A DNA stretch of 64,000 nucleotides from an uncultured archaeon (GCA_964441265.1 CAYYKJ010000007.1:1-64000); one strand, 5' to 3'; positions 18,177 to 56,333 are shown, counted from the stretch's first letter. Made by a program: numbers and translations. Notes: generated by a model from the sequence alone, not told the origin.

Positions 18177-19430
18177 ATGCAGCCGGAATACGGTTTCCAG
18201 GACTTCGAGATTGAACTGGAGGACATCCAGATAACCAAGACCAAGACCTTCGTCAGGGGTTTTGAGCCCACGGAAGGGGGATCGATCGCGTCCTCCCCGA
18301 AATTCTGGAAGGGTCTTGTTCATTTCGGGTCTTTCGACACGAACTGCTATGCCCTGACCCCTGACGGGGAGGAGGTTTGGAGGACCAAGCTGGGAGGCAT
18401 GGTCACCTGGGTGAATCCGGCTTTCTGGAACGGTTTCGTGATGTACGGGGCGTACGACAACAAATTCTACGCCCTCGACTCCATGACGGGGAAGATAATC
18501 TGGGAATTCCAGACAGGCGGTAAGATCGCCATGCAGGGATACGTTTCCGGCGACGTCGTTTACGTGGGGAGTTCGGACGGTTATGTCTATGCTCTGAGGA
18601 CATCTGACGGAAAGGAGCTCTGGAGGTTCAGGACAGGCGGGAAGGTGGCCACTCCACCGAGCGTCTACGGAGGCAGGGTATATTTCGGATCCTTCGACCA
18701 TAACATGTACTGCCTCTCCGAGGAGGGGAAGGAACTATGGCGGTTCAAGACCGGGGACGAGCTCCTGGCCGACAATCCCTATGAGGTTTACGACGGTGTC
18801 CTTTATTTCTCTTCCCTGGACTCCTACCTGTACGCGGTGGATGCGGAGACCGGCCGGCTCAAGTGGAAGTTCAAGACGGGGAAATACGGAAACACCTGCG
18901 CTCCCGTGCTCCACAGGGACAGGATATATCACGGCTGCAGGGACGGTATAGTCTACTGCCTTACCAGGGATGGGAAGGAGCTCTGGAGGTTCCAGGCGGA
19001 GAACCTGGTCGTCCAGGTGGGTATACACCGCGACAGGCTCTATTTCGGCGACGAGAGCGGGAACTTCTACTGCCTTTCCCTGGAAGGCAAGGAATTATGG
19101 AGATTCAAGACATCCGGGGCCGTGTTCACCGATCCATTATTCCACGAAGACCGGGTATGCATAGGATCTTTCGACTGCCACCTCTACTGCCTCTCCCTGG
19201 AAGGAAAGGAGCTCTGGAGGTTCCAGACCAGTTCGACGACCATGTCGGACATAGGGGAGCCCTACGAGATGTACGAGGCCGTGGTCTCCCAGGAGTCCGT
19301 GGACGAGGAAGGGTCCGGTGAAGAGGATAGCTATTCCGTCAACCTCTCCGGCGGAGGAATGGACGAATACGACGTGAAGAGCCAGTACGTGACCAAATCG
19401 GAATACGCCACCAAGAGCGAATACGCCTGA
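18177..19430 (+). CDS. PQQ-like beta-propeller repeat protein (paralog family; C-terminal YVTKSEYATKSEYA tail)
   Basis: Repeated 'YCL/YAL(D)..G.ELWRF.T' blades, an acidic N-terminus QPEYGFQDFEIE and a TKSEY-repeat C-terminus. Confidence 0.75.
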   Translation: MQPEYGFQDFEIELEDIQITKTKTFVRGFEPTEGGSIASSPKFWKGLVHFGSFDTNCYALTPDGEEVWRTKLGGMVTWVNPAFWNGFVMYGAYDNKFYALDSMTGKIIWEFQTGGKIAMQGYVSGDVVYVGSSDGYVYALRTSDGKELWRFRTGGKVATPPSVYGGRVYFGSFDHNMYCLSEEGKELWRFKTGDELLADNPYEVYDGVLYFSSLDSYLYAVDAETGRLKWKFKTGKYGNTCAPVLHRDRIYHGCRDGIVYCLTRDGKELWRFQAENLVVQVGIHRDRLYFGDESGNFYCLSLEGKELWRFKTSGAVFTDPLFHEDRVCIGSFDCHLYCLSLEGKELWRFQTSSTTMSDIGEPYEMYEAVVSQESVDEEGSGEEDSYSVNLSGGGMDEYDVKSQYVTKSEYATKSEYA

Positions 19431-33873: not shown

Positions 33874-34965
33874 ATGCCTGAGATAAAGCAGATCCCGGAG
33901 GACTTCGTGGTCAGGGAGATCTTCCGGAAGAAGGAACCCGGGGAAGGAGGGAAGACCGAGGACAGCCACTACGTATGGTTCACGCTCAAGAAGACCAACT
34001 GGAGCCTTTTCCGGGCGGTCAAAATGATCTCAAGGAAGCTGGGGGTCTCCGTGAAGAGATTCGGATATGCCGGCACCAAGGACAAGAGGGCGGTGACATA
34101 CCAGAAGGTTTCTGTGTGGAACGTCCCGATGGAGCGGCTGGAGTCGGTCAGGATAAAGGACATCGAGCTATCCGGTTTCGAGGAGAGGAGGGAGAGGATA
34201 AATCTGGGGGACCTGAAAGGCAACCGCTTCGAGATAACGGTAAGGGACATCGGGAAAGGGAAAAGGAAGGGTATGGAGAAGAACCTGGAGAGGATAAAAA
34301 GGGAGGGCATGATCAATTTTTACGGAAAGCAGAGGTTCGGGGTGAGGGGCAACACACACCTGGTCGGAAAGGAGATAATAAGGGACCGTCTGAAGGAGGC
34401 GGTCTGGACGTACCTGACTCATGGGAGAGAAAGGGAAAGGAACGAAGACGCCAGGTCGTTCAGGGAGAACCTGGAAAAGGGCGGGGATTTCATGGCCGCC
34501 ATTAAGGAGTGCCCGGGTTTCCTGGGGACCGAGAAGACACTTTTGCAGCACCTCGCCCGGGAACCGAACGATTACGCGGGAGCGCTGAGGAGGATACCGA
34601 AAAAGCTCCGGAGGATATTCGTCCATGCCTACCAGTCATACCTGTGGAACGAGATCGCGAAGGTTACGGAAGAGAAAACAATACCTATTATAGGTTTCGA
34701 TACCGATCTCTCGAAATACGAGTCGGGAAAAGAAATGAAGAGAATCCTCGGAGGGGAGGGGATAAAACCGGGCGATTTCAGGCTCAAGTCAATGCCCGAG
34801 CTCTCCGCCGAGGGGAGCGAGAGGAAAAGGATAGTTAGACCGAAGAAACTCGAATGGTCCTTCGGGGAGGATGAAATCAACGAGGGAAAGCTGAAATGCC
34901 TGCTGAAGTTCGGGATACCCCCGGGCTCCTACGCAACGGTCCTCGTGGACGGGGTGCTGAAATGA
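33874..34965 (+). CDS. truD: tRNA pseudouridine synthase TruD/Pus7
   Basis: FGYAGTKDKRAVTYQ catalytic-Asp motif; N-terminal IPEDFVVREI. Confidence 0.8.
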   Translation: MPEIKQIPEDFVVREIFRKKEPGEGGKTEDSHYVWFTLKKTNWSLFRAVKMISRKLGVSVKRFGYAGTKDKRAVTYQKVSVWNVPMERLESVRIKDIELSGFEERRERINLGDLKGNRFEITVRDIGKGKRKGMEKNLERIKREGMINFYGKQRFGVRGNTHLVGKEIIRDRLKEAVWTYLTHGRERERNEDARSFRENLEKGGDFMAAIKECPGFLGTEKTLLQHLAREPNDYAGALRRIPKKLRRIFVHAYQSYLWNEIAKVTEEKTIPIIGFDTDLSKYESGKEMKRILGGEGIKPGDFRLKSMPELSAEGSERKRIVRPKKLEWSFGEDEINEGKLKCLLKFGIPPGSYATVLVDGVLK

Positions 34966-36059
34966 GGATAGGCAAATTCGCTCTGGTGGGGGGAAGCGGG
35001 ATACTGGTGAACGAGTTCTTCCTGTGGTTCTTCACGGAGATTTTCGGTTTCTATTATCTCGTTTCCTCTGCGATAGCCATAGAGCTGTCCATAATCTCCA
35101 ATTTCGTCCTGAACAATTACTGGACCTTCGGGGACAGGAAGAAAGACGTGGGATTTTTCAGGAGGCTGATCAAGTTCAATTCCGTCTCCCTGATCGGGAT
35201 GGTTTTCACCATATTGATACTGCACCTGTTGACGGAATATTTCGGGATTTACTACCTTATATCCAACCTCATCGCCATATCCATCGTCTTCGTATGGAAT
35301 TACTTCGCCAACAAGAGATGGACCTGGTCCCCGGGAATAAGGAGAATCCCCCCGGTGGCAAAGAATCCCATGGTTTCCATAGTGATCCCAACCTACAACG
35401 AGAGGGAGAACCTGGAACTGCTGATACCCGAGATATTCATGTCCCTCTCCGAGGGGGGCGTGAAGGGGGAGGTGATCGTCGTGGATGACGATTCCCCTGA
35501 CGGGACCGGGGAGACCGCGGAAAGGATGAAGAAGAGGTTCAGGATGAAGGTCATTCGCAGGGAGGGGAAGAAGGGTCTTTCCTCCGCGGTTCTGGAAGGT
35601 TTCGGGAAGGCGGAGGGGGAGATACTGGGGGTGATGGATGCCGATTTCTCTCACCCCCCGGGGGACATTCCGAGGCTGGTGAATCCAATAATCAGGAACC
35701 GGGCGGACATGACGGTGGGCAGCCGCAAGGTCCGCGGCGGAGGAACCGAAGGCTGGCCGCTGAAGAGGAAGATCATATCATGGGGGGCCGGCCTCCTGGC
35801 CAGGCCGCTGACCAGCGTGAGGGATCCCATGTCCGGTTTCTTCTTCCTCAAGAAGGGGGTCATCAGGGGATTGGACCTGAACCCCACCGGATACAAGATA
35901 GGTCTGGAGGTAATGGTCAAGGGAAGTAACGCGAGGATACTTGAGGTCCCCTTCGTTTTCCGGGAAAGGAAGTCCGGAGAGAGCAAGCTTACTTTCAGGG
36001 AGGATCTCCGGTATCTCTTCCATTTGATTAAATTATATTGGTACAAAGCGAATAGATAA
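34962..36059 (+). CDS. GtrA-domain + GT2 glycosyltransferase (dolichyl-phosphate hexose synthase-like)
   Basis: N-terminal GtrA-like 4-TM region. Then VSIVIPTYNERENL…VVDDDSPDGT…DADFSHPP…QEG-less DPM1-like GT2. Start overlaps the truD stop. Confidence 0.75.
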   Translation: MRIGKFALVGGSGILVNEFFLWFFTEIFGFYYLVSSAIAIELSIISNFVLNNYWTFGDRKKDVGFFRRLIKFNSVSLIGMVFTILILHLLTEYFGIYYLISNLIAISIVFVWNYFANKRWTWSPGIRRIPPVAKNPMVSIVIPTYNERENLELLIPEIFMSLSEGGVKGEVIVVDDDSPDGTGETAERMKKRFRMKVIRREGKKGLSSAVLEGFGKAEGEILGVMDADFSHPPGDIPRLVNPIIRNRADMTVGSRKVRGGGTEGWPLKRKIISWGAGLLARPLTSVRDPMSGFFFLKKGVIRGLDLNPTGYKIGLEVMVKGSNARILEVPFVFRERKSGESKLTFREDLRYLFHLIKLYWYKANR

Positions 36060-36061
36060 AC

Positions 36062-37414
36062 ATGAACGGAATCCTGAAGAGAAGGGAGCTGGCGGTTTTC
36101 GTTTTGTTCCTGATATGCTATTCGTATTTCTACCTGCCGGCCGGATGGAACGAGAACAGCAGATACGACCTTACCTATTCCATGGTGGAAAACGGGACCT
36201 TCCGGATAGGCAGTTACCATGAGAACACACATGACAAATCATTCCTTGACGGACATTACTATTCGGACAAGGCACCGGGCTCCTCCTTCTTCGGTGCTGT
36301 GGCCTATTCGATGCTCGCCCCTTTCTCGGGGCCGGGCCCGGTTGCGGAGTATTTCATCAGGTTCCTGGTGGTCTCCCTCCCCTCCGCCTTCCTCTGCGTG
36401 CTTATTTACAGGCTTTCCGGCGAGTTCACGAAAAGGGAGAGGTACAGGGTGCTCGTGACCCTCGCTTACGGTCTGGGTACGATGGCTTTCCCTTATTCTC
36501 TCATGTTCTACGGTCACCAGATAGCCAGCGTTCTCCTGTTCTCCTGCTTCTATCTCCTTTTCACCAGGAGGGGTAGGATAGGTGATTACGGTCTCTTCGC
36601 CTGCGGTCTGATGATGGGAGCCGCTTTCATGACCGAATTCCCCGCCGCAATCATTTCGGTCTTCTTGTTCTTCTATGCATTCGCGGTTCTTGAGAATAAG
36701 GAGAAGATTTCCTTCCTGATACTGGGGATCATACCTCCCCTCATAATCCTCGCGGCCTACAATTTCCTCTGTTTTGGGGGGATGTTTTCCACCGGATATT
36801 CGTACCTCGCCTACCAGGAGTCCGCTGAATTCCAGTCCGCGGGATTCCTGGGGGTGTCACTCCCCGATCCCCTCGTCCTGTTGGGCATACTGTTCTCCCC
36901 GTACAGAGGGCTGTTCTTCTTTTCCCCATTCCTGCTCCTCTGCATACCCGGATTCCACCGCTTCTACAGGAACAACCGCCTCAGGAAGGAGTTCTGGCTG
37001 TTCCTCCTCTCCGTTCTTTCGTTCATTCTGTGGAATGCCGGTTATTCGGTGTGGTGGGGAGGATGGTCTCCCGGCCCCAGGCACCTAGTGCCCGTGATAC
37101 CTTTCATGGTCGTTACAATAATGCTATATTCCAGGGAATTCTCCGGCTGGAAGGAAAAGTTCGCGGTTCTGCTGGCGGCGGCTTCCATCGTCCTTACCTT
37201 TTCGGTCACCGTTACCGATCCCTTCCTGCCGGAGGGGGCATACAATCCCCTCGTCCAGCACACGATTCCCCTTCTCGCCAGGGGCGATTTCGCGTTCAAC
37301 GCGGGCAACCTGCTCGGTCTGGGGGGATTGCTTTCCCTGGTCCCCCTGCTGGCTGCCTTGGCGGTAATCCTGTGGATTCTTTCAGGAAGGAGGTTCCTGC
37401 AATGGATATCATAA
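36062..37414 (+). CDS. GT-C fold membrane glycosyltransferase (ArnT/PMT-like)
   Basis: ~11 TM, an N-terminal luminal loop with YSDKAPG, and an aromatic-rich architecture. Confidence 0.55.
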   Translation: MNGILKRRELAVFVLFLICYSYFYLPAGWNENSRYDLTYSMVENGTFRIGSYHENTHDKSFLDGHYYSDKAPGSSFFGAVAYSMLAPFSGPGPVAEYFIRFLVVSLPSAFLCVLIYRLSGEFTKRERYRVLVTLAYGLGTMAFPYSLMFYGHQIASVLLFSCFYLLFTRRGRIGDYGLFACGLMMGAAFMTEFPAAIISVFLFFYAFAVLENKEKISFLILGIIPPLIILAAYNFLCFGGMFSTGYSYLAYQESAEFQSAGFLGVSLPDPLVLLGILFSPYRGLFFFSPFLLLCIPGFHRFYRNNRLRKEFWLFLLSVLSFILWNAGYSVWWGGWSPGPRHLVPVIPFMVVTIMLYSREFSGWKEKFAVLLAAASIVLTFSVTVTDPFLPEGAYNPLVQHTIPLLARGDFAFNAGNLLGLGGLLSLVPLLAALAVILWILSGRRFLQWIS

Positions 37415-38805
37415 GAAGGATAGGCCCCGTGCGCATCCTTCTACTGGCCATACTGGGGGTCGGGATATTGCACATGATCCTGAAGTTCCACTTCATACTG
37501 TGGGACGAGGCGGTGTACATAGGCATAGGCAAGTACCTCTTTTCCCTTGGTTCGGTGGGGCTTTTCGAGGTCATCCGCCCGCCCGCCCTGCCGGTGATGC
37601 TCGGGTTCCTGTGGTTCCTGGGGGAGAGGGCGACCCTGTCTTACGACCTGCTCATCCTCCTCTTCTCCATGGGAAACGTGTACATGGCCTATCTCCTTGG
37701 GAAGAGAATTTCCGGGGAAAATGCCGGCCTTCTGGCGGGAGCATTACTCGCCATCACCCCCGTCTTCCTTTACAATTCCTTCAGGATAATGACCGGCATA
37801 CCATCCGCCTTCTTCGTTCTGATCTCCGTTTATCTGTATCTTGAGAAGAGGCCCCTTCTGGCCGGCCTTTTCTCGGGGCTGGCAGTTATGTTCAGATTCA
37901 CCAACGGGATACTTTTGCCGGTGCTCTTTTTGCTTCTCGTTCTGGACCATCACGGGGACCCCAAAAGACTGCTGAGGAAATCCCTTCTCATAGTCTTGGG
38001 ATTCTTGGTGGTCGTTTCTCCCTACCTCTTTGCCAGCCATCTCGCGTACGGAGATCCCCTCCATCCCCTGGTGCTCGCCGGCCAGCACCAGTACAATCCC
38101 GTCCACATCGTGGGTAATCCCGCGGAGAACCTCTTTTATTACCCCTCCCTCCTTTTCTGGGACAATATGCTGCTTTCCTTCTCCTTGTTTTCACTCCTGT
38201 ACATATCGGAAAACAAATGGGTGAGATATCTGTTGTTGATTTCGCTCGTATACTTGGTGGTGTTCACCTGGATGCCCAACAAGCAGCTCCGGTTCTCTCT
38301 CCCCTTTCTCCCGCTCCTTGCCGTGCTCTCCTCCTTCGGAATGCTGAGGATGAAGGACTACCTCCTGGAACAGAGGAGGAGGGTGATACTTTTCATCGCC
38401 TTCTCGCTGCTTATACTCCTATCAACCTCCGTCTCCCTTTGCAAGGATTTCCACAGGTTCGATTCCTTCCCGTCGGAGGAGCCGGGGATAGTCGGGGAAT
38501 ACTACCGCTATTTCGAGGACTCGGAGGGAACCATACTCACCAGCGACCCGGTCCCGGCCGCCTATTCAGACGTGTACATGGTCCCCTATTACAACAACAT
38601 AACCGATGCACACAGGATCTATGACCGGCATGTCGACCGGAGCGATTATGTGATCTTCAGCTTCAATCCGTTCCCCTGCTTTGACAGAGAATGCGAAGAA
38701 TTAAGAGAAGAACTGTTCGGGAAGATAAGCAGGAACGAGCTCTGCTTCAGCGAGACCTACGAGGAAACCAAGTACATCTTCAGGGTCAGTAAAACTCGGG
38801 ATTGA
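37403..38805 (+). CDS. GT-C fold membrane glycosyltransferase (ArnT/PMT-like), second copy
   Basis: A polytopic N-terminal half with WDEAVYIGIGKY (DE..Y-like) and a C-terminal soluble domain. Likely start at Met 37403; 12-nt overlap with the upstream gene. Confidence 0.55.
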
Positions 38806-40351
38806 TGTCGTCGAAGGTGGTCTGGCCGGGGAATTCCTTTAGGAGTTTGTATCCGTAAGGGTAGGAGACCGTGTGGAAGAGTATGGCCCTGTTTTCCGGG
38901 TCCTCCTCCAGCCATTCTCTGACCTCGCGGTAATCTCCAGAGCTGAATACTCTGACGGCTATGGCTTTTGCCCCTGTTTCCCTGGCCCTTTCGGTAACCC
39001 TTCCCATCTGCCCGAAATCGTCTATGAGGACGTATTCCACGTCCAGTTCTATGTCACCTGTCAGCTGATCGAAATACATCCTTGGGGTGTCGTAATAGCT
39101 GAGGGCGAACTTGTCACCGGATACCCCCATGACCACGAATTTCTCTTCCGTGCCGAATTCAACGGGCCTGTCTCCTATCACCATTATGTTGCCTTCCCTC
39201 CTGATGGGAGGGGAGCCCAGTATCTCTAATCCGCTCCCGAGAATGAGGGGCAGGTACTTGTCCGTGAAGCATATGGTCTTTATGCCCTTGCTCCCGAGAT
39301 ACATGGCCGCCTTGATCTTGCCGGGATTGTCGCAGCAACCCACCACCACCGTGGCGTTTTTCCGGACGGCCTGCTCCACCAGCATGTTTATGCCGTGGGT
39401 GTCTATTATGACCGCGATGTCTTCCCTGAAGAAGCGGGTGGTTGGGTAGAGGACCTTGTCCCTTGGGACCTCGAACCGGAAGACTCCATTCTCATCCGGA
39501 GCGTACCACTTCCCCTCCCGGTTTATGACGACGGTCCCACTGGCCGTCATGTGGGTGAGTCCCACCTCCCGTATTTCCCGGATGCGTGCCCCTTCGTGCC
39601 ATCCTATTTCCGGGAGGAGTTCGGTCTTGTTGTAACTCAGCCTTTCGGAGAAGGTGGTGAGGAGCTTCGGCCTCTGGAGTTCGTATTCGGTAAGCAATTC
39701 GTCCCTTCCGGCCCTGTAGAGAGGACCATAAAATATCTGGTAGCTCAGCCAATCCCTGGTGACCCTGTCGACCTGAGAAACCAGGATATCATGTTTGCCG
39801 AGATTTATTGAGGATTTCCCTGTTACGAACCCCTCCGGGTTCTCGGGGACGGAAAGGTTGAAGTCGGGGAGCCCCGCGGTATCCGTTTCGAAGTCGAGTG
39901 TTTCATTCAAGGCCAGAGCCTCGTCAAGTTCAGAGCGGAATTCGTTCCCCGCCGACTTCCAGAGTTCCGATGCCTTCAGCAGATCCCCTTCCGCATCCCT
40001 CCCGCAGTCCAGGGAGGCGAGCGTCTCGTATATTATCGCATCCCGCTCCGGTTCCCCTGAGAGCGAATGCTCGTAATGTGGGACCGATTCGCATATCAGG
40101 GAGGAGTCGTTTTTCAGTCTCCCCAGTATCAGGAGGATATCCCCCCTGGCGAAATCGCTTATGTCCTCCTCCAGAAGGTTCGTGAGGTTTCCTGTGAATG
40201 ACCTTTCATCCGAGCCCGTTGCCCTCAGGACGAAATGGAAGTCATGATTCTTCCCATGAGGGTCCGCATCCTGGTTCAATGTATCGGGGGCTAATAGCAT
40301 TGCTCCTAAAAAAATCATTATTATCACGAGAAGTGTTATTTCCATCTTCAT
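38786..40351 (-). CDS. secreted/membrane-anchored protein of unknown function
   Basis: N-terminal signal/anchor MKMEITLLVIIMIFLGAMLLA. ~500 aa with no recognisable motif. Confidence 0.5.
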   Translation of the reverse strand: MKMEITLLVIIMIFLGAMLLAPDTLNQDADPHGKNHDFHFVLRATGSDERSFTGNLTNLLEEDISDFARGDILLILGRLKNDSSLICESVPHYEHSLSGEPERDAIIYETLASLDCGRDAEGDLLKASELWKSAGNEFRSELDEALALNETLDFETDTAGLPDFNLSVPENPEGFVTGKSSINLGKHDILVSQVDRVTRDWLSYQIFYGPLYRAGRDELLTEYELQRPKLLTTFSERLSYNKTELLPEIGWHEGARIREIREVGLTHMTASGTVVINREGKWYAPDENGVFRFEVPRDKVLYPTTRFFREDIAVIIDTHGINMLVEQAVRKNATVVVGCCDNPGKIKAAMYLGSKGIKTICFTDKYLPLILGSGLEILGSPPIRREGNIMVIGDRPVEFGTEEKFVVMGVSGDKFALSYYDTPRMYFDQLTGDIELDVEYVLIDDFGQMGRVTERARETGAKAIAVRVFSSGDYREVREWLEEDPENRAILFHTVSYPYGYKLLKEFPGQTTFDDINPEFY

Positions 40352-40400: not shown

Positions 40401-41807
40401 ATGGGCGAAATGGGGAAGGCCGTTGGGGCTTTTTATGACATGGTGAAGGAAAACAGACTGATTGCGGTCCTTTTCGTTTTTTCAACTCTTTTCTTCCTTT
40501 TCCAGCACACGACGGGAATATCCTGGGACTTCGCTTCCTACGTCCTTAACGCGAAATACCTTTTCGGAGACGGGTTCTATTTCGAGCTTCTCCGGCCCCC
40601 GGTGACTCCTTTTCTTCTGGGGATTTTCAGCGTTTTCGGATGGGCCGCTTCTGAGTATGTGTACATAATATTCGTTTCTTCTCTGTATCTTTTTTCCTGC
40701 GTCAGGGTTTCTGAGGCCCTCGGGATCGACAGGAGGATTTTTTACGCTCTCTCCCTCAACCCCTTCGTTCTTTTTTACGGGCTTTCAGTAGGTACCGAGC
40801 TCCTTTCCCTGGCCCTCCTCCAGCTCTTCGCTTACTACGCGCTCAGGAGCGACGGTTTTAGATCGGGTGTCTGTTCCGGCCTATGTTCCCTCGTCAGGTA
40901 CACCAATCTGATTTATGCCCCTCTCATACTCCTTTCGAAGAGTCTCAGGAAGATTCTTGTATTCGCTCTGGTGGTTGCGCTTGTATTCTCGCCCTGGCTC
41001 CTTTTCAATTACCTGAATTACGGACACCCCCTGATGAGCATGCTGGATTCCTTCATACTGACCGTAACGACGAGGGCGGACATCGTAATGGGTTTTGATA
41101 TCTCTCATGTGTTTATTGCCGGGAATTATCTCATCCCTCTCTTCCTTTTAGGAGTTTTTCTGAAATACAGGGAGGGATCATTCGGAAAGAAAGAATGGGC
41201 CATGTTACTGGTCCTTTTCCTCACCCTATTCTCTTATTACAGGATACCCCTGAAGCACCCCAGGTTCCTTTTCAATCTGGCGCTCCCGTTAGCCTATTTT
41301 TCTTCATTGTCGCTGGAAAAATACAGGATCAGGCCCCTTTTTGTAGCCCTGTTCAGCATTGTGCTGGGTCTGGTTTTGCTGTTTCTGGTGGCGACCTCCA
41401 GCCCGATAGTCCCCCGCATGGGGCCTTCCGACCCTTCCGTGTATCTGGCGCACGGGGGGGGATGCATGGTGAGCAGCAACAGGTGGGTTTATTTCAATTA
41501 CCTCGGAATCCCTGCCGTTCCCAATCCGAGGGATTTCAGGCTGGAAGAGTACGTGAACGAGGGATACAGGATAATAATTTTCAGGGATCCCGAACCCGAT
41601 TATGCCCGCAATCTCAGCTTTCTGAGGCAGTTTCCGGTGATAGAGGAGGGAAACAATTACGTTGTGATCGGGAATGAGAGCCTGTGCCTTGATCCTTACG
41701 TGATTAACAGCACATACCACCAGCAGCTGAACGAGTCCATATACATCGGATACGGCTATCCGGTGGAGAAAGACCCCCTGAAAATCGTGATTTCGGGAGA
41801 ATACTAG
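40401..41807 (+). CDS. polytopic membrane protein, GT-C/DUF2029-like putative glycosyltransferase
   Basis: >10 TM, with a C-terminal soluble domain. Confidence 0.4.
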   Translation: MGEMGKAVGAFYDMVKENRLIAVLFVFSTLFFLFQHTTGISWDFASYVLNAKYLFGDGFYFELLRPPVTPFLLGIFSVFGWAASEYVYIIFVSSLYLFSCVRVSEALGIDRRIFYALSLNPFVLFYGLSVGTELLSLALLQLFAYYALRSDGFRSGVCSGLCSLVRYTNLIYAPLILLSKSLRKILVFALVVALVFSPWLLFNYLNYGHPLMSMLDSFILTVTTRADIVMGFDISHVFIAGNYLIPLFLLGVFLKYREGSFGKKEWAMLLVLFLTLFSYYRIPLKHPRFLFNLALPLAYFSSLSLEKYRIRPLFVALFSIVLGLVLLFLVATSSPIVPRMGPSDPSVYLAHGGGCMVSSNRWVYFNYLGIPAVPNPRDFRLEEYVNEGYRIIIFRDPEPDYARNLSFLRQFPVIEEGNNYVVIGNESLCLDPYVINSTYHQQLNESIYIGYGYPVEKDPLKIVISGEY

Positions 41808-41846: not shown

Positions 41847-43085
41847 ATGCTTGAGGATATTTTGTTCAACGGACTGTATTACATCCTGATATACGTGACT
41901 CTGTTCATATCCGTTTTCTGGTTCATGATATTCTTCGAGAAAAAGGACAGTATGACCAGAGACCCGGCGAAGCTCAAAAGGACACCCGGCCTGACCATGA
42001 TAGTCCCGGCTTACAACGAGGAAAAGAACCTGGGCAGGACCGTGGACTCCGTCCTGGGACAACATTATCCGAAAAACAAGCTGAAGGTCATAATAGTCGA
42101 CGACGCCTCCACCGACGGGACTGCCGCCGTGGGAAGGGAATACGCGGAAAAGTATCCCAACGTCAGGTTCTTCAGGCACAGGAAAAACAGGAGGAAGGCC
42201 GCTGCCACCAACACCGGACTCAGGCACGTGGATACGGAACTGGTCGGGTTCATAGACGCGGACACCGTTCTTGAGGAAAGGGACGCCCTCGTCCGCTCGA
42301 TATCCTATTTCGGAAACAAGAAAACGGGAAGCGTCATAGCTACTATAAAGCCCATGGACACCAGGACGTTCTCCCAGAAGCTCCAGAAGATAGAGTACAC
42401 CTTCACCGCCCTCGTGAGGAAGCTCCTGACCTTTCTGGGGGCGCTCTACATGACTCCCGCCTTCGCCCTTTACAGGACAAATCTCGTGAGGGAACTGGGG
42501 GGATGGGACGAGGAGAATTTCACCGAGGACCTGGAGATGGGCCTCAGGCTGCAGAACGAGGGCTATAAGATAGAGATGTCGATGAACGCGGCCGTCAAAA
42601 CGGACACCCCTGCCTCATTCAGCAAGTTCTGGAACCAGCGCATAAGGTGGGCCAGGGGATTCGTGCACAATTCCAGAAAATACACCCATATCTTCTTCGG
42701 GAGGAGCTTTGGTCACCTCGGATGGTTCGTTCTTCCCACCCAGTATCTGGTAGTGCTGCTGGCCATACCGGTTTTCCTTTATGGATTTTTTGACGCTCTC
42801 GATTCAGCGTACAGGACCGTGGTCAATTACTCTCTCATAGGTTTCGATGTACCTTACATACTTTCCCACCCCCTCAGCATTAATTTCAATTTCTTCAACC
42901 TTTCGCTGTTCCTCGTCACCCTGGTGGCCCTGGCAGCCCTTATAAGAATCGGCAGCAAACAAATCAACGAAAGCATAAACAAGCTCGAATACATACTTTA
43001 CATACCCCTCTATCCCCTGGTGAACATGCTGGTGTGGATGTGCGTGTTTTACCACGAGATCCGGAGAAGTGAGTACAAATGGTGA
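41847..43085 (+). CDS. processive family-2 glycosyltransferase (cellulose/chitin/NodC-synthase-like)
   Basis: The four GT2 synthase signatures are present in order: DDASTDGT, DAD, TED, QRIRWARG (QxxRW). Flanking TM helices. Confidence 0.8.
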   Translation: MLEDILFNGLYYILIYVTLFISVFWFMIFFEKKDSMTRDPAKLKRTPGLTMIVPAYNEEKNLGRTVDSVLGQHYPKNKLKVIIVDDASTDGTAAVGREYAEKYPNVRFFRHRKNRRKAAATNTGLRHVDTELVGFIDADTVLEERDALVRSISYFGNKKTGSVIATIKPMDTRTFSQKLQKIEYTFTALVRKLLTFLGALYMTPAFALYRTNLVRELGGWDEENFTEDLEMGLRLQNEGYKIEMSMNAAVKTDTPASFSKFWNQRIRWARGFVHNSRKYTHIFFGRSFGHLGWFVLPTQYLVVLLAIPVFLYGFFDALDSAYRTVVNYSLIGFDVPYILSHPLSINFNFFNLSLFLVTLVALAALIRIGSKQINESINKLEYILYIPLYPLVNMLVWMCVFYHEIRRSEYKW

Positions 43086-43756
43086 AGAAGAAGAAAAGCC
43101 CTTATATCGTGGCAGGCGTGGTTTCCTTCGTGATATTCATAGTGGGGTTCCTCGTCGGCTTCGCCATGCTTGATTTCCAGCTGGAGAACATCAGGCTGGA
43201 GATGGACAGGAACGAGCTGGAACTGAAGAACATAAATCTGGAACTCATGCTTCTCGACAAACTGGGGGATGGGGAAAAGCTGTGCTCCTACCTCAACAGG
43301 AGGATAGAATACATAGACAGGAAGACCTGGGAGCTGGGCAACAAGATAGTCAACCCAGAAGAAATAAACCAGCAGTATTTCGACATGCTTTCCAGGAGGT
43401 ATTCCGTCTCGCTCATAGAGGACTGGCTTTTCTCCGAGGAGCTTTCCGAGAGATGCGAGACGAAGAGGGTGAACGTGCTTTATTTCTTCGAGAAGAATTC
43501 CGACCTGTGCCAGTCCCAGGGGTATGTGCTGGATTATCTGGTCGAGAAGGACAAGGAGAACTACCTACGCATATTCTCACTTGACAAGGACCTCGACGAG
43601 CCCGCCATACAGATACTGGTGGAGGCGTACGACATAGAGAAGGCCCCCACCGTGGTGGTGGAGGGCAACAAGTTCGAGGGATTCCGGACGAAAGAGGAAC
43701 TGATGAACATATTCTGTGCGATAAACAGCGATTTCTCTTTCTGCGTACCATCCTGA
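43079..43756 (+). CDS. single-TM membrane-anchored protein coupled to the processive GT2
   Basis: 7-nt overlap with the upstream gene; an N-terminal TM, then coiled-coil and a soluble domain. Confidence 0.5.
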   Translation: MVKKKKSPYIVAGVVSFVIFIVGFLVGFAMLDFQLENIRLEMDRNELELKNINLELMLLDKLGDGEKLCSYLNRRIEYIDRKTWELGNKIVNPEEINQQYFDMLSRRYSVSLIEDWLFSEELSERCETKRVNVLYFFEKNSDLCQSQGYVLDYLVEKDKENYLRIFSLDKDLDEPAIQILVEAYDIEKAPTVVVEGNKFEGFRTKEELMNIFCAINSDFSFCVPS

Positions 43757-43864
43757 ATCCGTTTCCTGCGGAGTTCTGATATACGTACCCCTGTCTGGGC
43801 ATCGAAAATAAAAAGAAAAAGGGGTAACGTAGGCGCAATGCCTACGTTTTATTATTCAACGGAT

Positions 43865-46228
43865 TTATACGACTGCGCCTTTGTACTGGTCGCCTGACAG
43901 TGTAGCCATCTTGCTCGGCTTTATCACGTAGTTACCGATGAGGTCCCTAGTGTCAGCCGCCTGGTTACCTGCCACGATGAGCGCTTTCTGACCAGAACCG
44001 AACACGTCCTCTACGACCTCTATAAGGCCATTGCCCGACGTCTTGAGCGTGTCGTCCTCGAACCATGCTGTGCATGCGTCGGAGACGTTCCACTCGGTGT
44101 TGAGCAATTCCTTTACCAGAGTGTTTGCGCAGGGTCCGCCAACAAGGATAAGGTCCTTGTTAAGGGTGCTGGTCTGAGTTATCTCGCTCGGGAATTTGGC
44201 AACCGGGTTGGTTATTGGAACAGCTTCGCTGTATGTTCCTCCTGACGTTCCGCCAGTCGTGGATATCACCGGATCCGTCCCTATGGCTACGTTCGCGTAT
44301 GCCGGCCTTGTTCCTGGGTAGTACAGAGTCATCTTGTCGGAGTCGGTGTCTCTCTCTATGAAGGTACCGTAGTTGGATACGGCCCTGTAGAGCTTCTCTG
44401 TCCCGACCTGGTTCTCTGTCGGACCTGATGCCATTGTTACTGTGGCGATTTCCTGTGTGCTTCCGTCCCAGTTAGCAAGGAACTTCAGGGCCTGCCCTGA
44501 AGGCTCGTTTCCGCTGATGGAATACAACGGGCTCTCCGTGAAGGTCATGTTACCTACCTGGCTGAGGTCGATCTTTCCCTGTTCTTTCGTGTAAAGGTAC
44601 ACGTTCTCGTTGTCCACGATCGAACCGTTGCCGTTGAGGTCAACAGCTACCTCGTGAGAGGTGTCGTTGTATTTCAATACGAACTGGTTCGCACCCACTA
44701 TCAGGTTACCGTCATACAGGTTTGATGAACCGGTGTATGCGACCTCGTATTCGTCACCGCTTCCAAGATCCGTGAAAGTGAGGATCTTGTTGGTGTCGTC
44801 GTACGAGGAGTACCTGAGCAGGTACGATTTCTTGTCCTTGTCGAGTCCGAAGTACTCGTATCTGGCTATCCAGTCAGCGTCTGCCGGGACCGATATGTTG
44901 GGCTCCTGAACGTGGAACGCTTTTGAACCGTCCCCGTACTTCCAGCCCGAGCTGTAATAGAACACGTCTTTTGCGTATTCCGTGCTGTCGTCGTTCGTGA
45001 AGGTCAGTTTCACCTTGGTCGTACCGTCCTTCGCGAAGACAACCTTGTCCCTGTCGCTGCCTGTAAGTGCTGGTGTCATGCCTTCGAGCGCATACTTGAA
45101 GTTACCGAACAGCGGGTCCGTGTGGGAAGTCCCATCCGTGAGGTAGACTGTGTCTTCCGGAGCGACAGAGAATGTTAGCGAGTTTATCTCTGCGTTCTGC
45201 GTGCCGCCCTGTACGAAGTCTACGCTGGAACTCGTCATAAGGTCGTCGTTCTTTTTGACGGAGTTGTCAGTATCTGACAGCTCGATCTTGTCGCTCCCTA
45301 TGAAAAGCTCCACCGAACCGCTTGACTGGTCGGCTCCGGTGTACACAAGGCTTACCTGGCTGACGTATACGTTTGTGCTAATGCCAGATGCCAGTGTGTA
45401 TGAATTACCGGAAGCCCATCCGTACGTCGGCGGATTGGCTCCGTTTACCTGCACGTATGCCGTTGTTCCTGCACTGTCCCAACCGACAAGGCTGAGCGTG
45501 TAGTCGGTACCTCCGACCGTGACCGTTTCCTCATCTCCTGAGCCCGAAAGCGTAACGGTCTGAGCGCCGCTGGCCGCGTAAAGGGTCAGGGATGTGTTCG
45601 TCGGGTTCGGACCTATCTTGTATTCAGTGCCGAACATTTCTACTGACTTATCTTCGGCATCCGAAGGGTTCAGTCCGCCGAGGAAGATCACTTTCAGATC
45701 GTATGTGGTCGAGGTGTCGAACTTCACGTTGAGCACCGGCTCATCCCAGTCGTCCGGACTCTCGTCATAAAGGACCTTGTGGGTTCCGAGGTTAACCAAC
45801 TGAAGGTAGTTGACGCTCGGGTTCGTCTGAACGCTGCCCTTTGCAAGCATGTCGGGCATTTCAGAGTCCGTAAGGCTTGTCTTTATGGTCGAGAAGGCCA
45901 GATTAAGGTACGGGTAGTCGCTGGCGCTCTTCAACAGTATTCCGTTGGTAACTGATGTCTCCCCTGATGTCGAAGGGATCGATTTCTCTTCGACTGCGTA
46001 GTTTGAAACCAGGCTTGCCGCGATGTCTGCTGCACCCACCACATCTGTGGTGTCAACACCGGAACCAACCACTATGGCTGGTGATGTAAGTGTGCTTGTG
46101 GCAGAATCGGCCACCACGTATGGTGAAAGACCCTGGTCCAGGGTAGTTGCTGCAAAGGCTCCGAAAGCCAGTGTTGCTCCTGCTGCTATTGTTGCCAAAC
46201 CTCCTGCGATTAATTGCTTGATTTTCAT
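43865..46228 (-). CDS. putative S-layer / major surface glycoprotein
   Basis: Signal peptide MKIKQLIAGGLATIAAGATLAFGAFA. 787 aa, rich in T/S/N/G/Y/V/D with many N-x-S/T sequons. Strong AT-rich promoter region upstream (46229-46437). Confidence 0.5.
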   Translation of the reverse strand: MKIKQLIAGGLATIAAGATLAFGAFAATTLDQGLSPYVVADSATSTLTSPAIVVGSGVDTTDVVGAADIAASLVSNYAVEEKSIPSTSGETSVTNGILLKSASDYPYLNLAFSTIKTSLTDSEMPDMLAKGSVQTNPSVNYLQLVNLGTHKVLYDESPDDWDEPVLNVKFDTSTTYDLKVIFLGGLNPSDAEDKSVEMFGTEYKIGPNPTNTSLTLYAASGAQTVTLSGSGDEETVTVGGTDYTLSLVGWDSAGTTAYVQVNGANPPTYGWASGNSYTLASGISTNVYVSQVSLVYTGADQSSGSVELFIGSDKIELSDTDNSVKKNDDLMTSSSVDFVQGGTQNAEINSLTFSVAPEDTVYLTDGTSHTDPLFGNFKYALEGMTPALTGSDRDKVVFAKDGTTKVKLTFTNDDSTEYAKDVFYYSSGWKYGDGSKAFHVQEPNISVPADADWIARYEYFGLDKDKKSYLLRYSSYDDTNKILTFTDLGSGDEYEVAYTGSSNLYDGNLIVGANQFVLKYNDTSHEVAVDLNGNGSIVDNENVYLYTKEQGKIDLSQVGNMTFTESPLYSISGNEPSGQALKFLANWDGSTQEIATVTMASGPTENQVGTEKLYRAVSNYGTFIERDTDSDKMTLYYPGTRPAYANVAIGTDPVISTTGGTSGGTYSEAVPITNPVAKFPSEITQTSTLNKDLILVGGPCANTLVKELLNTEWNVSDACTAWFEDDTLKTSGNGLIEVVEDVFGSGQKALIVAGNQAADTRDLIGNYVIKPSKMATLSGDQYKGAVV

Positions 46229-46437: not shown

Positions 46438-47292
46438 TTAAACTATTATTAGTATTATATCTCCGATTAAAAACGTTATTATCGTGGTGAGCAGGAAAAC
46501 AGGAGCGAACCGGACACCCTCTTTTATACACACGAACTTCCTGTTCTTTCGTATCTTTTCCACCTCCTCCTTTTCGAGTCCTCTCCACTTGTCATCGAGG
46601 ACAACGTCCCCCTCCCTGAGTTCTGAGACGGGAATCCTCTTCTTGAACATGTCCTTCTCTATCAACCTGGCGTAACTCGTGAAAATGAGTATGAAAGAAA
46701 GCAGGAAGGGAAGCATTAGCATGGTGGGCATTGAGGCGGGGGGTATGCCGAAAGTAATCGAAAGGTACATCACGGAAAGATAGCTGCCCAGGAAAAATAC
46801 CGCCACGAAAAATCCGTATCTCTTTGAATCATTTCTGATTTCCCTGAGGAAGGATTTCCTGAGCTTTCTGCTTCTGTATCCCAGTAAGAGGGAATAGCAT
46901 ATCAGGTAGAAGAGCGAAACGAAGAGGAAGTTCAGGAGGAGGGCCAGCGGAAGGTTGAACGTCACCGGGACCTCGAATCCCGTCATGTCAGGGAAGAGGA
47001 ATCCCATCGCTCCGAGGAGCCACGCATCTCCGTCTCCCCACTGCTTGAGGAAATACATGACCAGACCAAGCCCCAGGAACAGGCAGCCCACCATCACAGA
47101 ATTCGCCAGCAGGGAGAAGTCGGAGTAGAGGAAAGAGAATACCGCCCTCGCCGCCAGGGCCGAGATTATCATGGAATACGGGAGCCAGTCGGGGAATTCC
47201 GTATACCTGAGATCCCAGTAGCTCCCAGCCGAAAACCCGGCCAAACCGATTATCAAGGACACTATCCAGAGCATAATAATATATGACTGCAT
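46438..47292 (-). CDS. A24-family prepilin/preflagellin peptidase (PibD/FlaK-like)
   Basis: Polytopic, with WGDGDAWLLGAMG (the GDxxLL aspartyl motif). Confidence 0.6.
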   Translation of the reverse strand: MQSYIIMLWIVSLIIGLAGFSAGSYWDLRYTEFPDWLPYSMIISALAARAVFSFLYSDFSLLANSVMVGCLFLGLGLVMYFLKQWGDGDAWLLGAMGFLFPDMTGFEVPVTFNLPLALLLNFLFVSLFYLICYSLLLGYRSRKLRKSFLREIRNDSKRYGFFVAVFFLGSYLSVMYLSITFGIPPASMPTMLMLPFLLSFILIFTSYARLIEKDMFKKRIPVSELREGDVVLDDKWRGLEKEEVEKIRKNRKFVCIKEGVRFAPVFLLTTIITFLIGDIILIIV

Positions 47293-55695: not shown

Positions 55696-56292
55696 ATGAT
55701 AAGGGCGGTAATATTCGACATGGGTGGAGTGATGGTCAAAAACAAATCAGAGGCGGTTTTCAGCAGACTCGCAGAGAAACTGGGCGTCGATCCCGCTTCT
55801 TTGGACGATTTGCGAAAGGAAAATTACCGGGAGATGCTGATAGGGGAAAAATCTTCGAGGCAGTTTGCAGAGATGATCAGCCGGCGTTTTAATCTCAGTG
55901 CCGATGTTATCGGGGAATGGAAGAAATCCTATTTAGAAGTGATGCCGGTAAACGAAGATCTTGCCGAGATGACTGGGAGCTTAAAGAGAATATATAAAGT
56001 GGCGATTATTTCGAACGTCCCTGATCTGCATGCTGACATTAATAAAAAGAGAGGCGTTTTTTCTCATTTCGAGCCGGCATTGATATCCTGCGACGTAGGT
56101 ATGGCCAAGCCCGATAGGGGAATATTCGAACTCGCCCTGGAAAAACTGGACATGAAAGCTGAAGAATGCATTTTCATCGACGATCGCGAGAAGTTTCTGA
56201 AGACTCCGGAAGAGATGGGCTTCCGCACGATACACTTCCGGAGCAACGGGCAATTGAAGAAAGATCTTGTGAAACTCGGGGTTCAGATTTAA
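55696..56292 (+). CDS. HAD-superfamily hydrolase, subfamily IA
   Basis: Motif I FDMGGV, motif II S/T (ISN), motif III K…, motif IV DD. Confidence 0.75.
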   Translation: MIRAVIFDMGGVMVKNKSEAVFSRLAEKLGVDPASLDDLRKENYREMLIGEKSSRQFAEMISRRFNLSADVIGEWKKSYLEVMPVNEDLAEMTGSLKRIYKVAIISNVPDLHADINKKRGVFSHFEPALISCDVGMAKPDRGIFELALEKLDMKAEECIFIDDREKFLKTPEEMGFRTIHFRSNGQLKKDLVKLGVQI

Positions 56293-56333
56293 AAGAATTC
56301 ATTCCCATTCTATACCACCGGGAGAGGGGTGAC

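Follow-up and report, generated by a model that had tools for sequence, protein, structure and literature searches.

A conserved gene pair of DPANN archaea and CPR bacteria couples a synthase-class glycosyltransferase to a stalked thioredoxin-fold protein and is a candidate surface-glycan synthase

Introduction

In the operons of the poly-β-1,6-GlcNAc synthases PgaC (Escherichia coli) and IcaA (staphylococci), a small membrane-protein gene lies directly downstream of the synthase gene, and its products, PgaD and IcaD, are small and mostly membrane-embedded. BcsB, the subunit that accompanies BcsA, is large and C-terminally anchored, with carbohydrate-binding and flavodoxin-like domains. Thioredoxin-fold subunits are known from another kind of membrane glycosyltransferase: Ost3/Ost6 (TUSC3/MagT1), subunits of the eukaryotic oligosaccharyltransferase, consist of a thioredoxin domain followed by four transmembrane (TM) helices.

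Two smaller systems are also relevant. PcManGT of Pyrobaculum calidifontis (PDB 6YV7-9) is an archaeal membrane GT2 enzyme, similar in size to the one described here, with a 'minimal cellulose-synthase-like fold'. It reportedly acts in N-glycan synthesis and not as a processive synthase, and we know of no thioredoxin-fold partner for it. Its donor is GDP-mannose (PMC12595478). In reduced-genome mycoplasmas, one membrane GT2, which has 3-7 TM helices and carries DxD and QxxRW, both makes and exports a capsular homopolymer (PMC11658790). These stand-alone synthases, which we liken to the present enzyme by description and not by sequence, follow the same minimal-genome logic that we propose for DPANN archaea and CPR bacteria. 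No conserved thioredoxin-fold partner has, to our knowledge, been described for them.

Here we analyse a GT2 gene and its downstream neighbour in an uncultured archaeon. Our literature search found no paper on this gene pair or on a thioredoxin-fold partner of a synthase; where 'PgaC' is mentioned in CPR or DPANN papers, the mentions are DOIs in reference lists or concern other bacteria.

Results

The window is a 64,000-nucleotide stretch of DNA (GCA_964441265.1, CAYYKJ010000007.1:1-64000); features lie on the plus strand unless stated otherwise. A 412-amino-acid (aa) ORF at 41847..43085 encodes a synthase-class GT2 glycosyltransferase of BcsA/PgaC-like architecture, and a 225-aa ORF at 43079..43756, from a family that carries no annotation, encodes its partner. 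ORF calls and the junction sequence (...AAATGGTGA...) bear out the predicted arrangement, in which the partner ATG and the GT2 stop fall within a 7-nt overlap (ATGGTGA, 43079..43085), as in translational coupling. Homologues have an invariant M-V N terminus, which supports the start at 43079, and the identical 7-nt overlap recurs at loci L001-L003, L008, L088-L093, L110, L111, L116, L117 and L130. We assign the window to the Aenigmarchaeota on the strength of relatives that show 87% identity. A terminator-like hairpin with T-runs on both strands (43826..43848) sits between the partner gene and a convergent S-layer gene and probably ends the two-gene unit.

The translated GT2 carries the four predicted motifs of processive synthases in order, save that the first is DDxxxD and not DDxxD, a trivial slip. 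We assessed their conservation in a clade of 60 sequences with identity down to 26%. In the nucleotide-binding motif DDASTD (D85, D86, S88, D90; 42099..42116), S88 and D90 are invariant and D86 nearly so. KAAATN (42195..42212) corresponds to the UDP-binding motif KAG/KAxxxN of BcsA-type synthases and aligns with 'AKAGNINNAL' of BcsA; N122 is invariant and K117 nearly invariant. The metal/diphosphate-binding motif DAD (DxD; 42255..42263) has an invariant D137 and a nearly invariant D139. E227 and D228 of the TED motif (42522..42530), where D228 is the putative catalytic base, are both invariant, and the region aligns with VTEDAHTSLRLHRRGY of BcsA. Finally, the acceptor-holding motif QRIRW (42636..42650) is the same as in QRIRWARG of E. 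coli BcsA; QRxRW is present in 60/60 clade members, with Q264, R265, R267 and W268 invariant. Because these residues are invariant or nearly so across the clade, the motifs are not chance occurrences. They can be aligned to E. coli BcsA residue by residue and match its series one for one (VPxYNE, DDx, DxD, xxxxxxYR/IRR, TEDxxxxLRLxxxGY, QRIRWARG).

Hydropathy also agrees with the prediction that TM helices flank the motifs. One helix precedes them (aa 10-30; 41874..41936), and three strongly hydrophobic helices (approximately aa 293-318, 345-368 and 383-402) follow in a C-terminal membrane region (42708..43052).

The GT2 matches Pfam Glyco_tranf_2_3 (4e-34), and its best curated family is NCBIfam PgaC_IcaA (149 bits, 1.6e-43), whose members are of similar size, ~410 aa. 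The alignment spans aa 11-407 against profile positions 8-393 of 407 and so includes the C-terminal membrane region. PgaC_IcaA is likewise the best NCBIfam match for orthologues from CPR (185 bits) and Woesearchaeota (161 bits). Scores nevertheless fall below all curated equivalog cut-offs (PgaC_IcaA 149 versus 422, NodC 65 versus 550, CelA 80 versus 699, BcsA 75 versus 992). We therefore call the enzyme synthase-class, or synthase-like, and not an orthologue of any characterised synthase; being so far below every cut-off, its processivity and product are properties that we can only infer. Profile searches did not assign the GT2 to a non-processive family with a coincidental QxxRW, since the best match is PgaC_IcaA over the whole protein. 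Non-processive look-alikes scored low (ceramide glucosyltransferase 32 bits, HpnI 31, DPMS 24).

Among solved structures, only BcsA (profile positions 12-325) and HAS1 (87-340) let the GT2 family profile pass through and beyond QxxRW into the membrane part, and with BcsA the alignment starts at the TM helix before the glycosyltransferase domain. The GT2 is nevertheless half the size of BcsA, has no PilZ domain and has no FxVTxK gating-loop region in the alignment. We rejected a polyprenyl-phosphate glycosyltransferase of the GtrB/DPMS/ArnC/AglJ type: GtrB, DPMS and ArnC align over approximately aa 40-150 only, and the GT2 has both an N-terminal TM helix and QRIRW.

The partner is a bitopic membrane protein composed of a TM helix, a three-helix stalk and a thioredoxin domain. 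Its anchor, placed by hydropathy at aa 9-31 (43103..43171), contains an invariant F20 and a G23xxxG27 motif, and the KKKK that precedes it predicts an N-in topology. The AlphaFold2 model reached a pLDDT of 87.8 with 111 sequences, versus 54 with 12 close sequences. It comprises helices 8-62, 66-91 and 98-125, the part outside the membrane forming an extracytoplasmic stalk (aa 32-125; 43172..43453), followed by a domain at aa 129-216 (43463..43726) with the β-α-β-α-β-β-α order of the thioredoxin fold. The anchor thus stood as predicted, and the predicted coiled-coil segment is better described as a three-helix stalk that leads into a thioredoxin-fold domain.

In an alignment of 260 partner-family members, F20, C69, C126, Q147 and P190 form the invariant set, and E55 of the stalk is also invariant. 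C69 (43283..43285), at the start of stalk helix 2, is Cys in 256 of the 260 members, the rest being gaps. C126 (43454..43456), at the end of stalk helix 3 and its junction with the thioredoxin-fold domain, is Cys in 259. The helix geometry of the model suggests that the two form a disulfide. P190 (43646..43648; Pro in 257/260) occupies the thioredoxin cis-proline position and aligns with the 'PT' loop of thioredoxin, and a Q147-G148 pair (43517..43522; Q in 256/260, G in 243/260) lies just past the active-site position.

The family is large, with ~1,180 clusters at 50% identity. The window partner matches no Pfam family at E <= 0.01, in line with the claim that similarity to BcsB or PgaB is undetectable, and the full-length model matched no PDB structure (TM-score ~0.33, normalised to the query). 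Homology to BcsB, PgaB, PgaD or IcaD was rejected: there is no Pfam or NCBIfam match, and the fold also differs. In structural terms the partner is no analogue of BcsB or PgaB; it is a stalked thioredoxin-fold protein.

We sought homologous pairs by scanning genomes with the GT2 clade and metagenomes with a Woesearchaeota partner sub-alignment. The partner proved strongly co-conserved: it is adjacent in 19/19 evaluable GT2-centred loci, from Aenigmarchaeota, Woesearchaeota/Nanoarchaeia, Micrarchaeota and five CPR bacteria. All GT2 loci scoring >= 358 bits with the clade HMM have an adjacent partner. Among the more distant GT2 relatives (<= 295 bits) none has one; a partner lies nearby only in L018, where it is on the opposite strand, 1.3 kb upstream. 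A neighbour-joining tree groups the partner-associated GT2s into one clade. We saw no GT2-partner fusion among 120 GT2 homologues or the best 150 partner-family representatives, and the partner domain begins within the first 33 residues in all of those 150. In the sample scanned here the pair is confined to DPANN archaea and CPR bacteria, and its presence in the latter makes the label 'archaeal' too narrow.

In 15 of 36 partner-centred Woesearchaeota-type loci (about 40%) the GT2 is absent and the partner overlaps, and is coupled to, a GT-C glycosyltransferase gene; the partner therefore has no obligate GT2 neighbour. In those loci the GT-C shows a weak AglB_core-like match (E 0.002). In the five CPR loci, the pair stands alone among housekeeping genes, with no glycan or GT-C gene within ~5 kb, and looks self-sufficient.

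In the window, the genes around the pair include three for GT-C paralogues, one for a GtrA-GT2 protein and that for the S-layer protein. One paralogue, a 468-aa membrane glycosyltransferase of the PMT_2 superfamily (40401..41807), has homologues near the pair in L001-L005, and a PMT_2-type GT-C glycosyltransferase lies at 37399..38805. On the minus strand, 38786..40351 encodes a membrane-anchored protein of 521 aa with no Pfam, NCBIfam or PDB sequence match; elsewhere, its homologue follows a partner-like domain in a single fused protein. A GtrA-TM and GT2 fusion resembling AglJ and Dol-P-hexose synthases (34896..36059), separate from the synthase-class GT2, likely supplies the lipid-linked sugar donor for the GT-C enzymes. 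We saw no nucleotide-sugar precursor genes within the window.

The strongest alternative, for which this setting speaks, is a system for surface glycosylation and not for polymer synthesis. The GT2 could, like PcManGT, add one or a few sugars to a dolichol-phosphate- or other lipid-linked acceptor, after which GT-C enzymes would glycosylate the S-layer protein or other targets outside the cell; the partner would then be Ost3/Ost6-like, holding or chaperoning the acceptor beside a GT-C. PcManGT is in fact the top-scoring solved relative over the catalytic half (6yv7; aa 39-256/261; 86 bits with the single sequence, 130 with the profile), the pair has GT-C paralogues with it in loci of Aenigmarchaeota and Woesearchaeota, and the loci that lack the GT2 keep a coupled GT-C. 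The resemblance to Ost3/Ost6 is that of a non-cytoplasmic, membrane-bound thioredoxin module tied to membrane glycosyltransferases. Several observations point the other way. The PcManGT alignment ends before QxxRW, and PcManGT has ADD where the window clade has an invariant TED followed by QRxRW. The partner has one TM helix before a stalk and not four after the thioredoxin domain, most family members lack CxxC, and, often as the family sits beside GT-C enzymes, its strongest linkage is to the GT2. The solitary CPR pairs offer no GT-C to serve, and carrier lipids differ between archaea and bacteria, which would make a carrier-dependent enzyme shared across domains less parsimonious. In addition, the GtrA-GT2 protein of the same cluster already covers the Dol-P-sugar synthase role, which counts for a synthase-class assignment of the GT2. 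We regard this surface-glycosylation reading as unlikely, but as one that must be kept in play.

A second alternative is that the GT2 glycosylates membrane lipids, much as GT21 ceramide glucosyltransferase, HpnI or MGlcDG synthase does. It would decorate the host-derived lipids of lipid-auxotrophic episymbionts, and the partner would aid the presentation or flipping of the glycolipid. DPANN archaea and CPR bacteria, the only groups with the pair in our sample, are known to depend on hosts for lipids. At L004, L005 and L130, genes for CarS, inositol-1-phosphate synthase and a CDP-alcohol phosphatidyltransferase are only a few genes away from the pair, but PTH2 and TruD intervene, and the other contexts have no lipid genes. 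The GT2 does match Pfam Glyco_transf_21 (5e-11), and ceramide glucosyltransferase structures share its layout (an N-terminal TM helix, then D1-D2-D3-(Q/R)xxRW) and align from that helix to QxxRW (aa 6-270). Their scores are low, however, at 32 bits with the single sequence and 58 with the profile, versus 60 and 110 for BcsA; HpnI (31 bits) and CruG (23) also fall well short of PgaC_IcaA. With ceramide glucosyltransferase, moreover, the GT2 profile (8-266) stops inside QxxRW instead of running past it. On balance we consider lipid glycosylation improbable.

At the position of the thioredoxin CxxC, the window partner reads SDLC (43499..43510), with Ser in place of the nucleophilic Cys. Lacking CxxC, it does not qualify as a thiol-disulfide oxidoreductase, and the head in this genome is thus not a redox enzyme. 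Across the 260 family members, CxxC is present in 35, xxxC in 11 and neither Cys in 201. The carriers of CxxC include 4/5 CPR members, L129 of the Micrarchaeota, the loci L131 and L018, and 4/12 close relatives, and its survival in CPR, Micrarchaeota and some others hints at a redox role in the ancestor. We considered, and rejected, a redox action of the partner on the GT2 itself: the GT2s have no conserved cysteine, none tracks the CxxC of the partner, and the GT2 of L013 contains no cysteine at all. It is very improbable that the partner is an independent membrane-tethered oxidoreductase (DsbA/ResA/TlpA-like) that merely shares an operon with the GT2, since its thioredoxin fold and retained cis-proline, the CxxC carriers and the occurrence of partners without an adjacent GT2 are outweighed. 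Most members lack both cysteines, and this one lacks the nucleophile, yet adjacency and the other invariant residues are kept. The adjacency also spans two domains and many contexts, often with the 7-nt overlap, and would be difficult to account for if the two proteins had no functional link.

Discussion

Our leading interpretation, put forward tentatively, is a surface-glycan machine of synthase type, built as two subunits from the products of both genes, in which the partner is an accessory subunit of a new kind. The original prediction of an exopolysaccharide synthase module is upheld in part: the GT2 is of synthase class and has a co-conserved partner, but a synthase module is one of two live readings, because the partner adjoins a GT-C without the GT2 at a substantial share of its loci and the archaeal loci are GT-C-rich.

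In the proposed machine, the GT2, with one membrane helix before and three after its cytoplasmic GT-A domain, would most likely take up a nucleotide-sugar at the cytoplasmic face. Sugars would be added repeatedly to a chain gripped by QRIRW, with D228 of TED acting as the catalytic base, and the membrane helices of the GT2 itself would serve as the way out for the chain, as in BcsA, PgaC, NodC and HAS. Translational coupling would provide the partner in fixed proportion. The partner's helix, with its F20 and GxxxG, may pack against the synthase in the membrane, and a stalk stapled by C69-C126 would lift the thioredoxin-fold head a few nanometres above it. There the head surface around Q147-G148 and cis-Pro190 could receive, guide or gate the emerging chain. 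Alternatively, the head may pass the chain to neighbouring extracytoplasmic GT-C enzymes.

The synthase interpretation has precedents and difficulties. In its favour, the mycoplasma stand-alone synthases show that one TM-GT2 enzyme can suffice. The gene order also recalls BcsA-BcsB, in that the synthase gene is followed by one for a membrane-anchored subunit that is mostly extracytoplasmic; the partner, however, is anchored N-terminally, has a thioredoxin fold and, at 225 aa, is far from the large BcsB. The Pga and Ica systems likewise place a membrane-protein gene behind the synthase gene, whereas the partner, with its single TM helix, large stalk and head, bears no similarity to PgaD or IcaD, and the window pair has no equivalent of PgaA/PgaB or IcaB/IcaC. 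Counting against a polymer synthase, the top solved match over the catalytic half is the non-processive PcManGT, and the equally non-processive ceramide glucosyltransferase has the same layout. The surviving CxxC counts against the synthase model as well, since the redox role at which it hints goes unused there. So do the scores below the curated cut-offs, the partner loci that have a GT-C and no GT2, and the lack of GT2-partner fusions among the sequences surveyed.

The occurrence of the pair in both DPANN and CPR suggests a shared cell-surface sugar machine. A wider proposal, possible but more doubtful than the synthase interpretation itself, is that the two radiations share a dedicated two-subunit glycan synthase through horizontal transfer. 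Its accessory would be a previously unrecognised class of subunit, in which a helical stalk stapled by a disulfide carries a thioredoxin-fold cap; the class would have arisen from a redox-active CxxC protein and repeatedly become a non-redox binding module; the polymer would be specific to ultra-small episymbionts. That surface polymer is possibly the material with which they contact their hosts.

The partner family itself, large and without a Pfam model, offers a structure predicted with confidence and a clear set of invariant residues. If the surface-glycosylation reading were correct, prokaryotes would have in this family a counterpart to the thioredoxin-fold subunits of oligosaccharyltransferase. 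If the synthase interpretation is correct, synthase-dependent polysaccharide pathways would gain an accessory subunit of a new type, beside BcsB, PgaD, IcaD and Alg44. A large part of microbial diversity belongs to the DPANN archaea and CPR bacteria, which live attached to other cells and whose envelopes have seen almost no biochemical study; a compact two-gene module conserved in both radiations offers a concrete candidate for a surface-polymer machine that they share.

A synthase-class GT2 and its overlapping partner

The pair lies on the forward strand at the positions originally described, with a 412-aa glycosyltransferase gene (GT2; 41847..43085) followed by a 225-aa partner gene (43079..43756). 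Their junction reads AAATGGTGA, so that the partner gene, from its ATG, shares its first 7 nt with the end of the GT2 gene, stop codon included. Between the partner and a convergent S-layer gene stands a terminator-like hairpin (43826-43848), which has T-runs on each strand, so the pair probably closes a transcription unit. The nearest relatives, at 87% identity, are from Candidatus Aenigmarchaeota, a DPANN archaeal group. The GT2 and its clade of relatives, hereafter the GT2 clade, end in an almost invariant K-W (alignment A4; window 43077-43085). At overlapping loci the codons AAA-TGG-TGA also spell the partner's invariant M-V start, so that both conserved termini are constrained by the same nucleotides.

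Translation recovered the four expected motifs in order, DDASTD (42099-42116), DAD (42255-42263), TED (42522-42530) and QRIRW (42636-42650), all on the forward strand; the first is DDxxxD, not DDxxD as originally read. Hydropathy placed one helix N-terminal to the catalytic domain (aa 10-30) and three strongly hydrophobic helices C-terminal to it (about aa 293-318, 345-368 and 383-402). Pfam returned generic GT2 families, with weak matches to cellulose and chitin synthases. The best curated NCBIfam family was PgaC_IcaA (1.6e-43; 149 bits, far under its cut-off of 422 bits), aligned over the entire GT2 (aa 11-407 against 8-393 of 407), its C-terminal membrane region included. The same family was the top match to the CPR and Woesearchaeota orthologues as well, full-length in both, at 185 and 161 bits respectively.

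In alignments to solved structures, E. coli BcsA matched the GT2 motif for motif: VPTYNE in BcsA corresponds to VPAYNE in the GT2, DCD to DAD, FFCGSCAVIRR to YMTPAFALYRT, VTEDAHTSLRLHRRGY to FTEDLEMGLRLQNEGY, and QRIRWARGMV to QRIRWARGFV. We searched the PDB with a profile of 60 clade members, which aligned to BcsA over positions 12-325 and to HAS1 over 87-340, in both cases beyond QxxRW. Higher-scoring matches (K4CP; PcManGT at 39-261) covered only the nucleotide-binding half or ended before QxxRW, and ceramide glucosyltransferase (8-266) scored much lower. D137, E227, D228, Q264, R265, R267 and W268 were invariant across the clade alignment, down to 26% identity, and QRxRW was present in 60/60 sequences. 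These invariant motifs, together with profile alignments that continue past QxxRW, argue against the GT2 being a member of a non-processive family that has its QxxRW by chance. Judged by sequence, the GT2 is not orthologous to any characterised synthase; it joins a known class as a new member that branches deeply. We infer that it is processive; PcManGT and ceramide glucosyltransferase, both non-processive, have parts of the same layout.

Co-conservation of the GT2 and its partner

Co-conservation was examined both ways, through GT2-centred and partner-centred loci. Scanning for the GT2 clade in genomes, one for each GTDB species, gave 80 loci. Wherever the GT2 reached 358 bits against the clade HMM and the locus was evaluable, the partner adjoined it; of the roughly 70 relatives with lower scores (≤295 bits), which include Streptomyces, Acidobacteriota and Bacteroidota, only that of locus L018 had a partner nearby, on the opposite strand. 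There (L018:6617-9155) two synthase-class GT2 genes stand in tandem with a CxxC partner homologue divergent just upstream, an arrangement unlike every other locus. Seven loci reached via distant GT2 homologues, including L129 from Micrarchaeota, had the partner immediately 3' in 7/7. Adjacency was 16/16 with the window included and the partner-centred loci L001-L003 excluded, and 19/19 with them; in these three close relatives the GT2 lies upstream despite different flanking genes. The partner is thus co-conserved, remaining adjacent in all 19 evaluable GT2-clade loci. The two genes overlap by up to 10 nt or lie up to 189 nt apart, and many lineages share the 7-nt overlap.

Five positive loci are from CPR bacteria, among them Parcubacteria, Paceibacterota, Nomurabacteria and Kaiserbacteria, so the pair is not confined to archaea. 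Its CPR neighbours are PheS/PheT, EF-Ts, S2 and GyrB genes, and no other glycan genes were found near the pair in these five loci. The order is reversed in L012 (Nomurabacteria), with the partner upstream. A rough neighbour-joining tree placed the partner-associated GT2s in one clade with the CPR sequences as a single group within it, which lends support to a single origin of the pair.

The partner is a predicted extracellular stalk with a thioredoxin-fold head

The partner matched no Pfam family, and an initial search found only 12 close homologues. The 210-223-aa genes 3' of distant GT2 homologues proved to be partner homologues at 23-27% identity; with a profile search the family grew to 109 clusters (90% identity) and with an exhaustive HMM search to 1,177 (50% identity), of which 891 were at E ≤ 1e-10. 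Members are about 200-230 aa, except for recurrent fusions of about 700 aa. Our literature search found no description of the pair or the partner family, for which Pfam has no model.

An AlphaFold2 model from 111 sequences (pLDDT 87.8, confident) comprises a helix forming the membrane anchor and its extension (aa 8-62), two helices completing a three-helix stalk (66-91 and 98-125), and a beta-alpha-beta-alpha-beta-beta-alpha domain (131-215). The lysine-rich N-terminus predicts an N-in topology, which would place stalk and head outside the cell. Near-invariant in 260 members were the anchor residue F20, C69 and C126 (which open stalk helix 2 and close helix 3, respectively), Q147-G148, and the proline P190 in the cis-proline position. 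By its geometry, an up-down-up bundle would place C69 beside C126 at its top, suggesting a structural disulfide, which would fit an extracytoplasmic location.

At the classical CxxC site the window partner reads SDLC, and the site is patchy across the family: of the 260, 35 have CxxC, 11 xxxC and 201 neither, most of these reading DxxS. Most Woesearchaeota partners likewise read DxxS. Unlike these and the window partner, CxxC is intact among the CPR loci L009-L013 (4/5 as a group), in L129 (Micrarchaeota) and in L131 and L018, as CADC, CDDC, CPDC, CRDC, CPEC, CPSC or CDKC; several other archaeal members have it too. This scatter across CPR, Micrarchaeota and other archaea suggests that the ancestor was probably redox-active and that the site was lost repeatedly. 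No conserved cysteine that might serve as a partner substrate was present among the GT2s compared.

Genomic context and partner loci without the GT2

Upstream of the pair, preceded by TruD, is a 387-aa fusion (34896-36059, +) of an N-terminal GtrA/DPMS-type TM domain with a GT2 of the AglJ/Dol-P-hexose-synthase type (best NCBIfam matches AglJ, ArnC and dolichyl-phosphate hexose transferase). By homology it probably supplies a lipid-linked sugar donor for the neighbouring GT-C enzymes, three PMT_2 / LA_3751-3752-like paralogues (36062-37414, 37399-38805 and 40401-41807, all +). Iterative searches united these with 450-500-aa genes flanking Woesearchaeota-type pairs. On the opposite strand, between the second and third of the window's GT-C genes, lies a gene for a 521-aa N-terminally anchored protein (38786-40351, −), which had no relatives in Pfam, NCBIfam or PDB sequences. 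Woesearchaeota-type loci carry a second partner-like ORF directly after the partner, and in many a homologue of the 521-aa protein is fused behind this second partner-like domain (TM, stalk and thioredoxin fold; about 700 aa; for example, L007:7884-9977 and L088:4599-6740).

The S-layer gene convergent with the pair (S_layer_C, S_layer_MJ; 43865-46228, −) is followed by a FlaK/PibD-like prepilin/preflagellin peptidase gene (46438-47292, −). L130 likewise has an S-layer gene after the pair, and in L003 an S-layer-like ORF is found upstream. In the Aenigmarchaeota-type loci L004:649-4132, L005:1277-4522 and L130:1-1259, genes for CDP-archaeol synthase (CarS), a DedA/VTT protein and a CDP-alcohol phosphatidyltransferase lie a few genes upstream of the pair; L004 and L005 additionally carry inositol-1-phosphate synthase and have TruD directly upstream of the GT2, and in L130 TruD is one GT-C gene further off. 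TruD in the window heads the glycosylation cluster, several genes upstream of the pair. Elsewhere the window encodes two PQQ/BamB-like beta-propeller proteins of about 420 aa (1175-2452, −; 18177-19430, +) and a 554-aa protein (56166-57830, +) matching ThyX (Thy1) only over aa 132-315, far longer than typical ThyX. Given its GT-C, GtrA-GT2 and S-layer neighbours, the pair in DPANN archaea is part of a larger envelope-glycan cluster, of which only the pair is shared in CPR.

When metagenomes were scanned for the partner with a Woesearchaeota-type sub-alignment, 41 loci were recovered, 36 of them evaluable. The GT2 was directly upstream in 21/36 and absent from the locus in 15/36 (L095, L097-L099, L101-L105, L108, L112, L119, L122-L124). 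In these 15 a gene of about 480 aa overlaps the partner start by 4 nt; like the window's neighbours, it belongs to the GT-C (PMT_2) superfamily. The L095 paralogue has a weak AglB_core-like match (E 0.002). The conserved cluster order is RadA, GT-C, GT-C, [GT2], partner, partner-like, GT-C, ABC, and synteny with L007, judged within the locus only, indicates that the GT2 is missing from an otherwise kept cluster.

A candidate two-subunit synthase

The best-supported reading, which we hold tentatively at somewhat less than even odds, is that the pair forms a two-subunit synthase-type machine. On the cytoplasmic side the GT2 would build a sugar chain from a nucleotide-sugar and pass it outward through the enzyme's own helices. 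The partner, kept in a fixed ratio by translational coupling, would pack its anchor helix against the synthase, and its stapled stalk would carry a non-redox thioredoxin-fold head above the chain exit; the head may receive, guide or gate the chain, or hand it to GT-C enzymes for decoration. This reading draws on the synthase-class homology of the GT2, the strict association of its clade with the partner, the stand-alone CPR pair, and the presence in the cluster of a Dol-P-sugar-synthase-type gene distinct from the GT2. Minimal genomes of mycoplasmas, which use TM-GT2 synthases for capsules, offer a precedent (PMC11658790).

The abundance of GT-C genes around the pair and the 15 partner loci that lack a GT2 would also suit a PcManGT-like lipid-linked glycan step feeding GT-C surface glycosylation, with an Ost3/Ost6-like partner; we consider this unlikely, however, given the invariant TED/QRxRW of the GT2 clade and the CPR context of the pair. 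A GT21-like glycolipid synthase modifying host-derived lipids is less probable again, and that the partner is an unrelated tethered thiol-disulfide oxidoreductase merely sharing an operon with the GT2 is the most doubtful reading.

The observation behind the proposed archaeal exopolysaccharide synthase module stands and its interpretation holds in part, corrected for the nature of the partner, the wider phyletic range and the linkage to GT-C enzymes. In the two-subunit synthase reading, the partner is an accessory subunit of a type that synthase-dependent systems are not known to have. The spread of the pair across DPANN and CPR is notable, and its stand-alone occurrence in CPR suggests independence from domain-specific carrier lipids.
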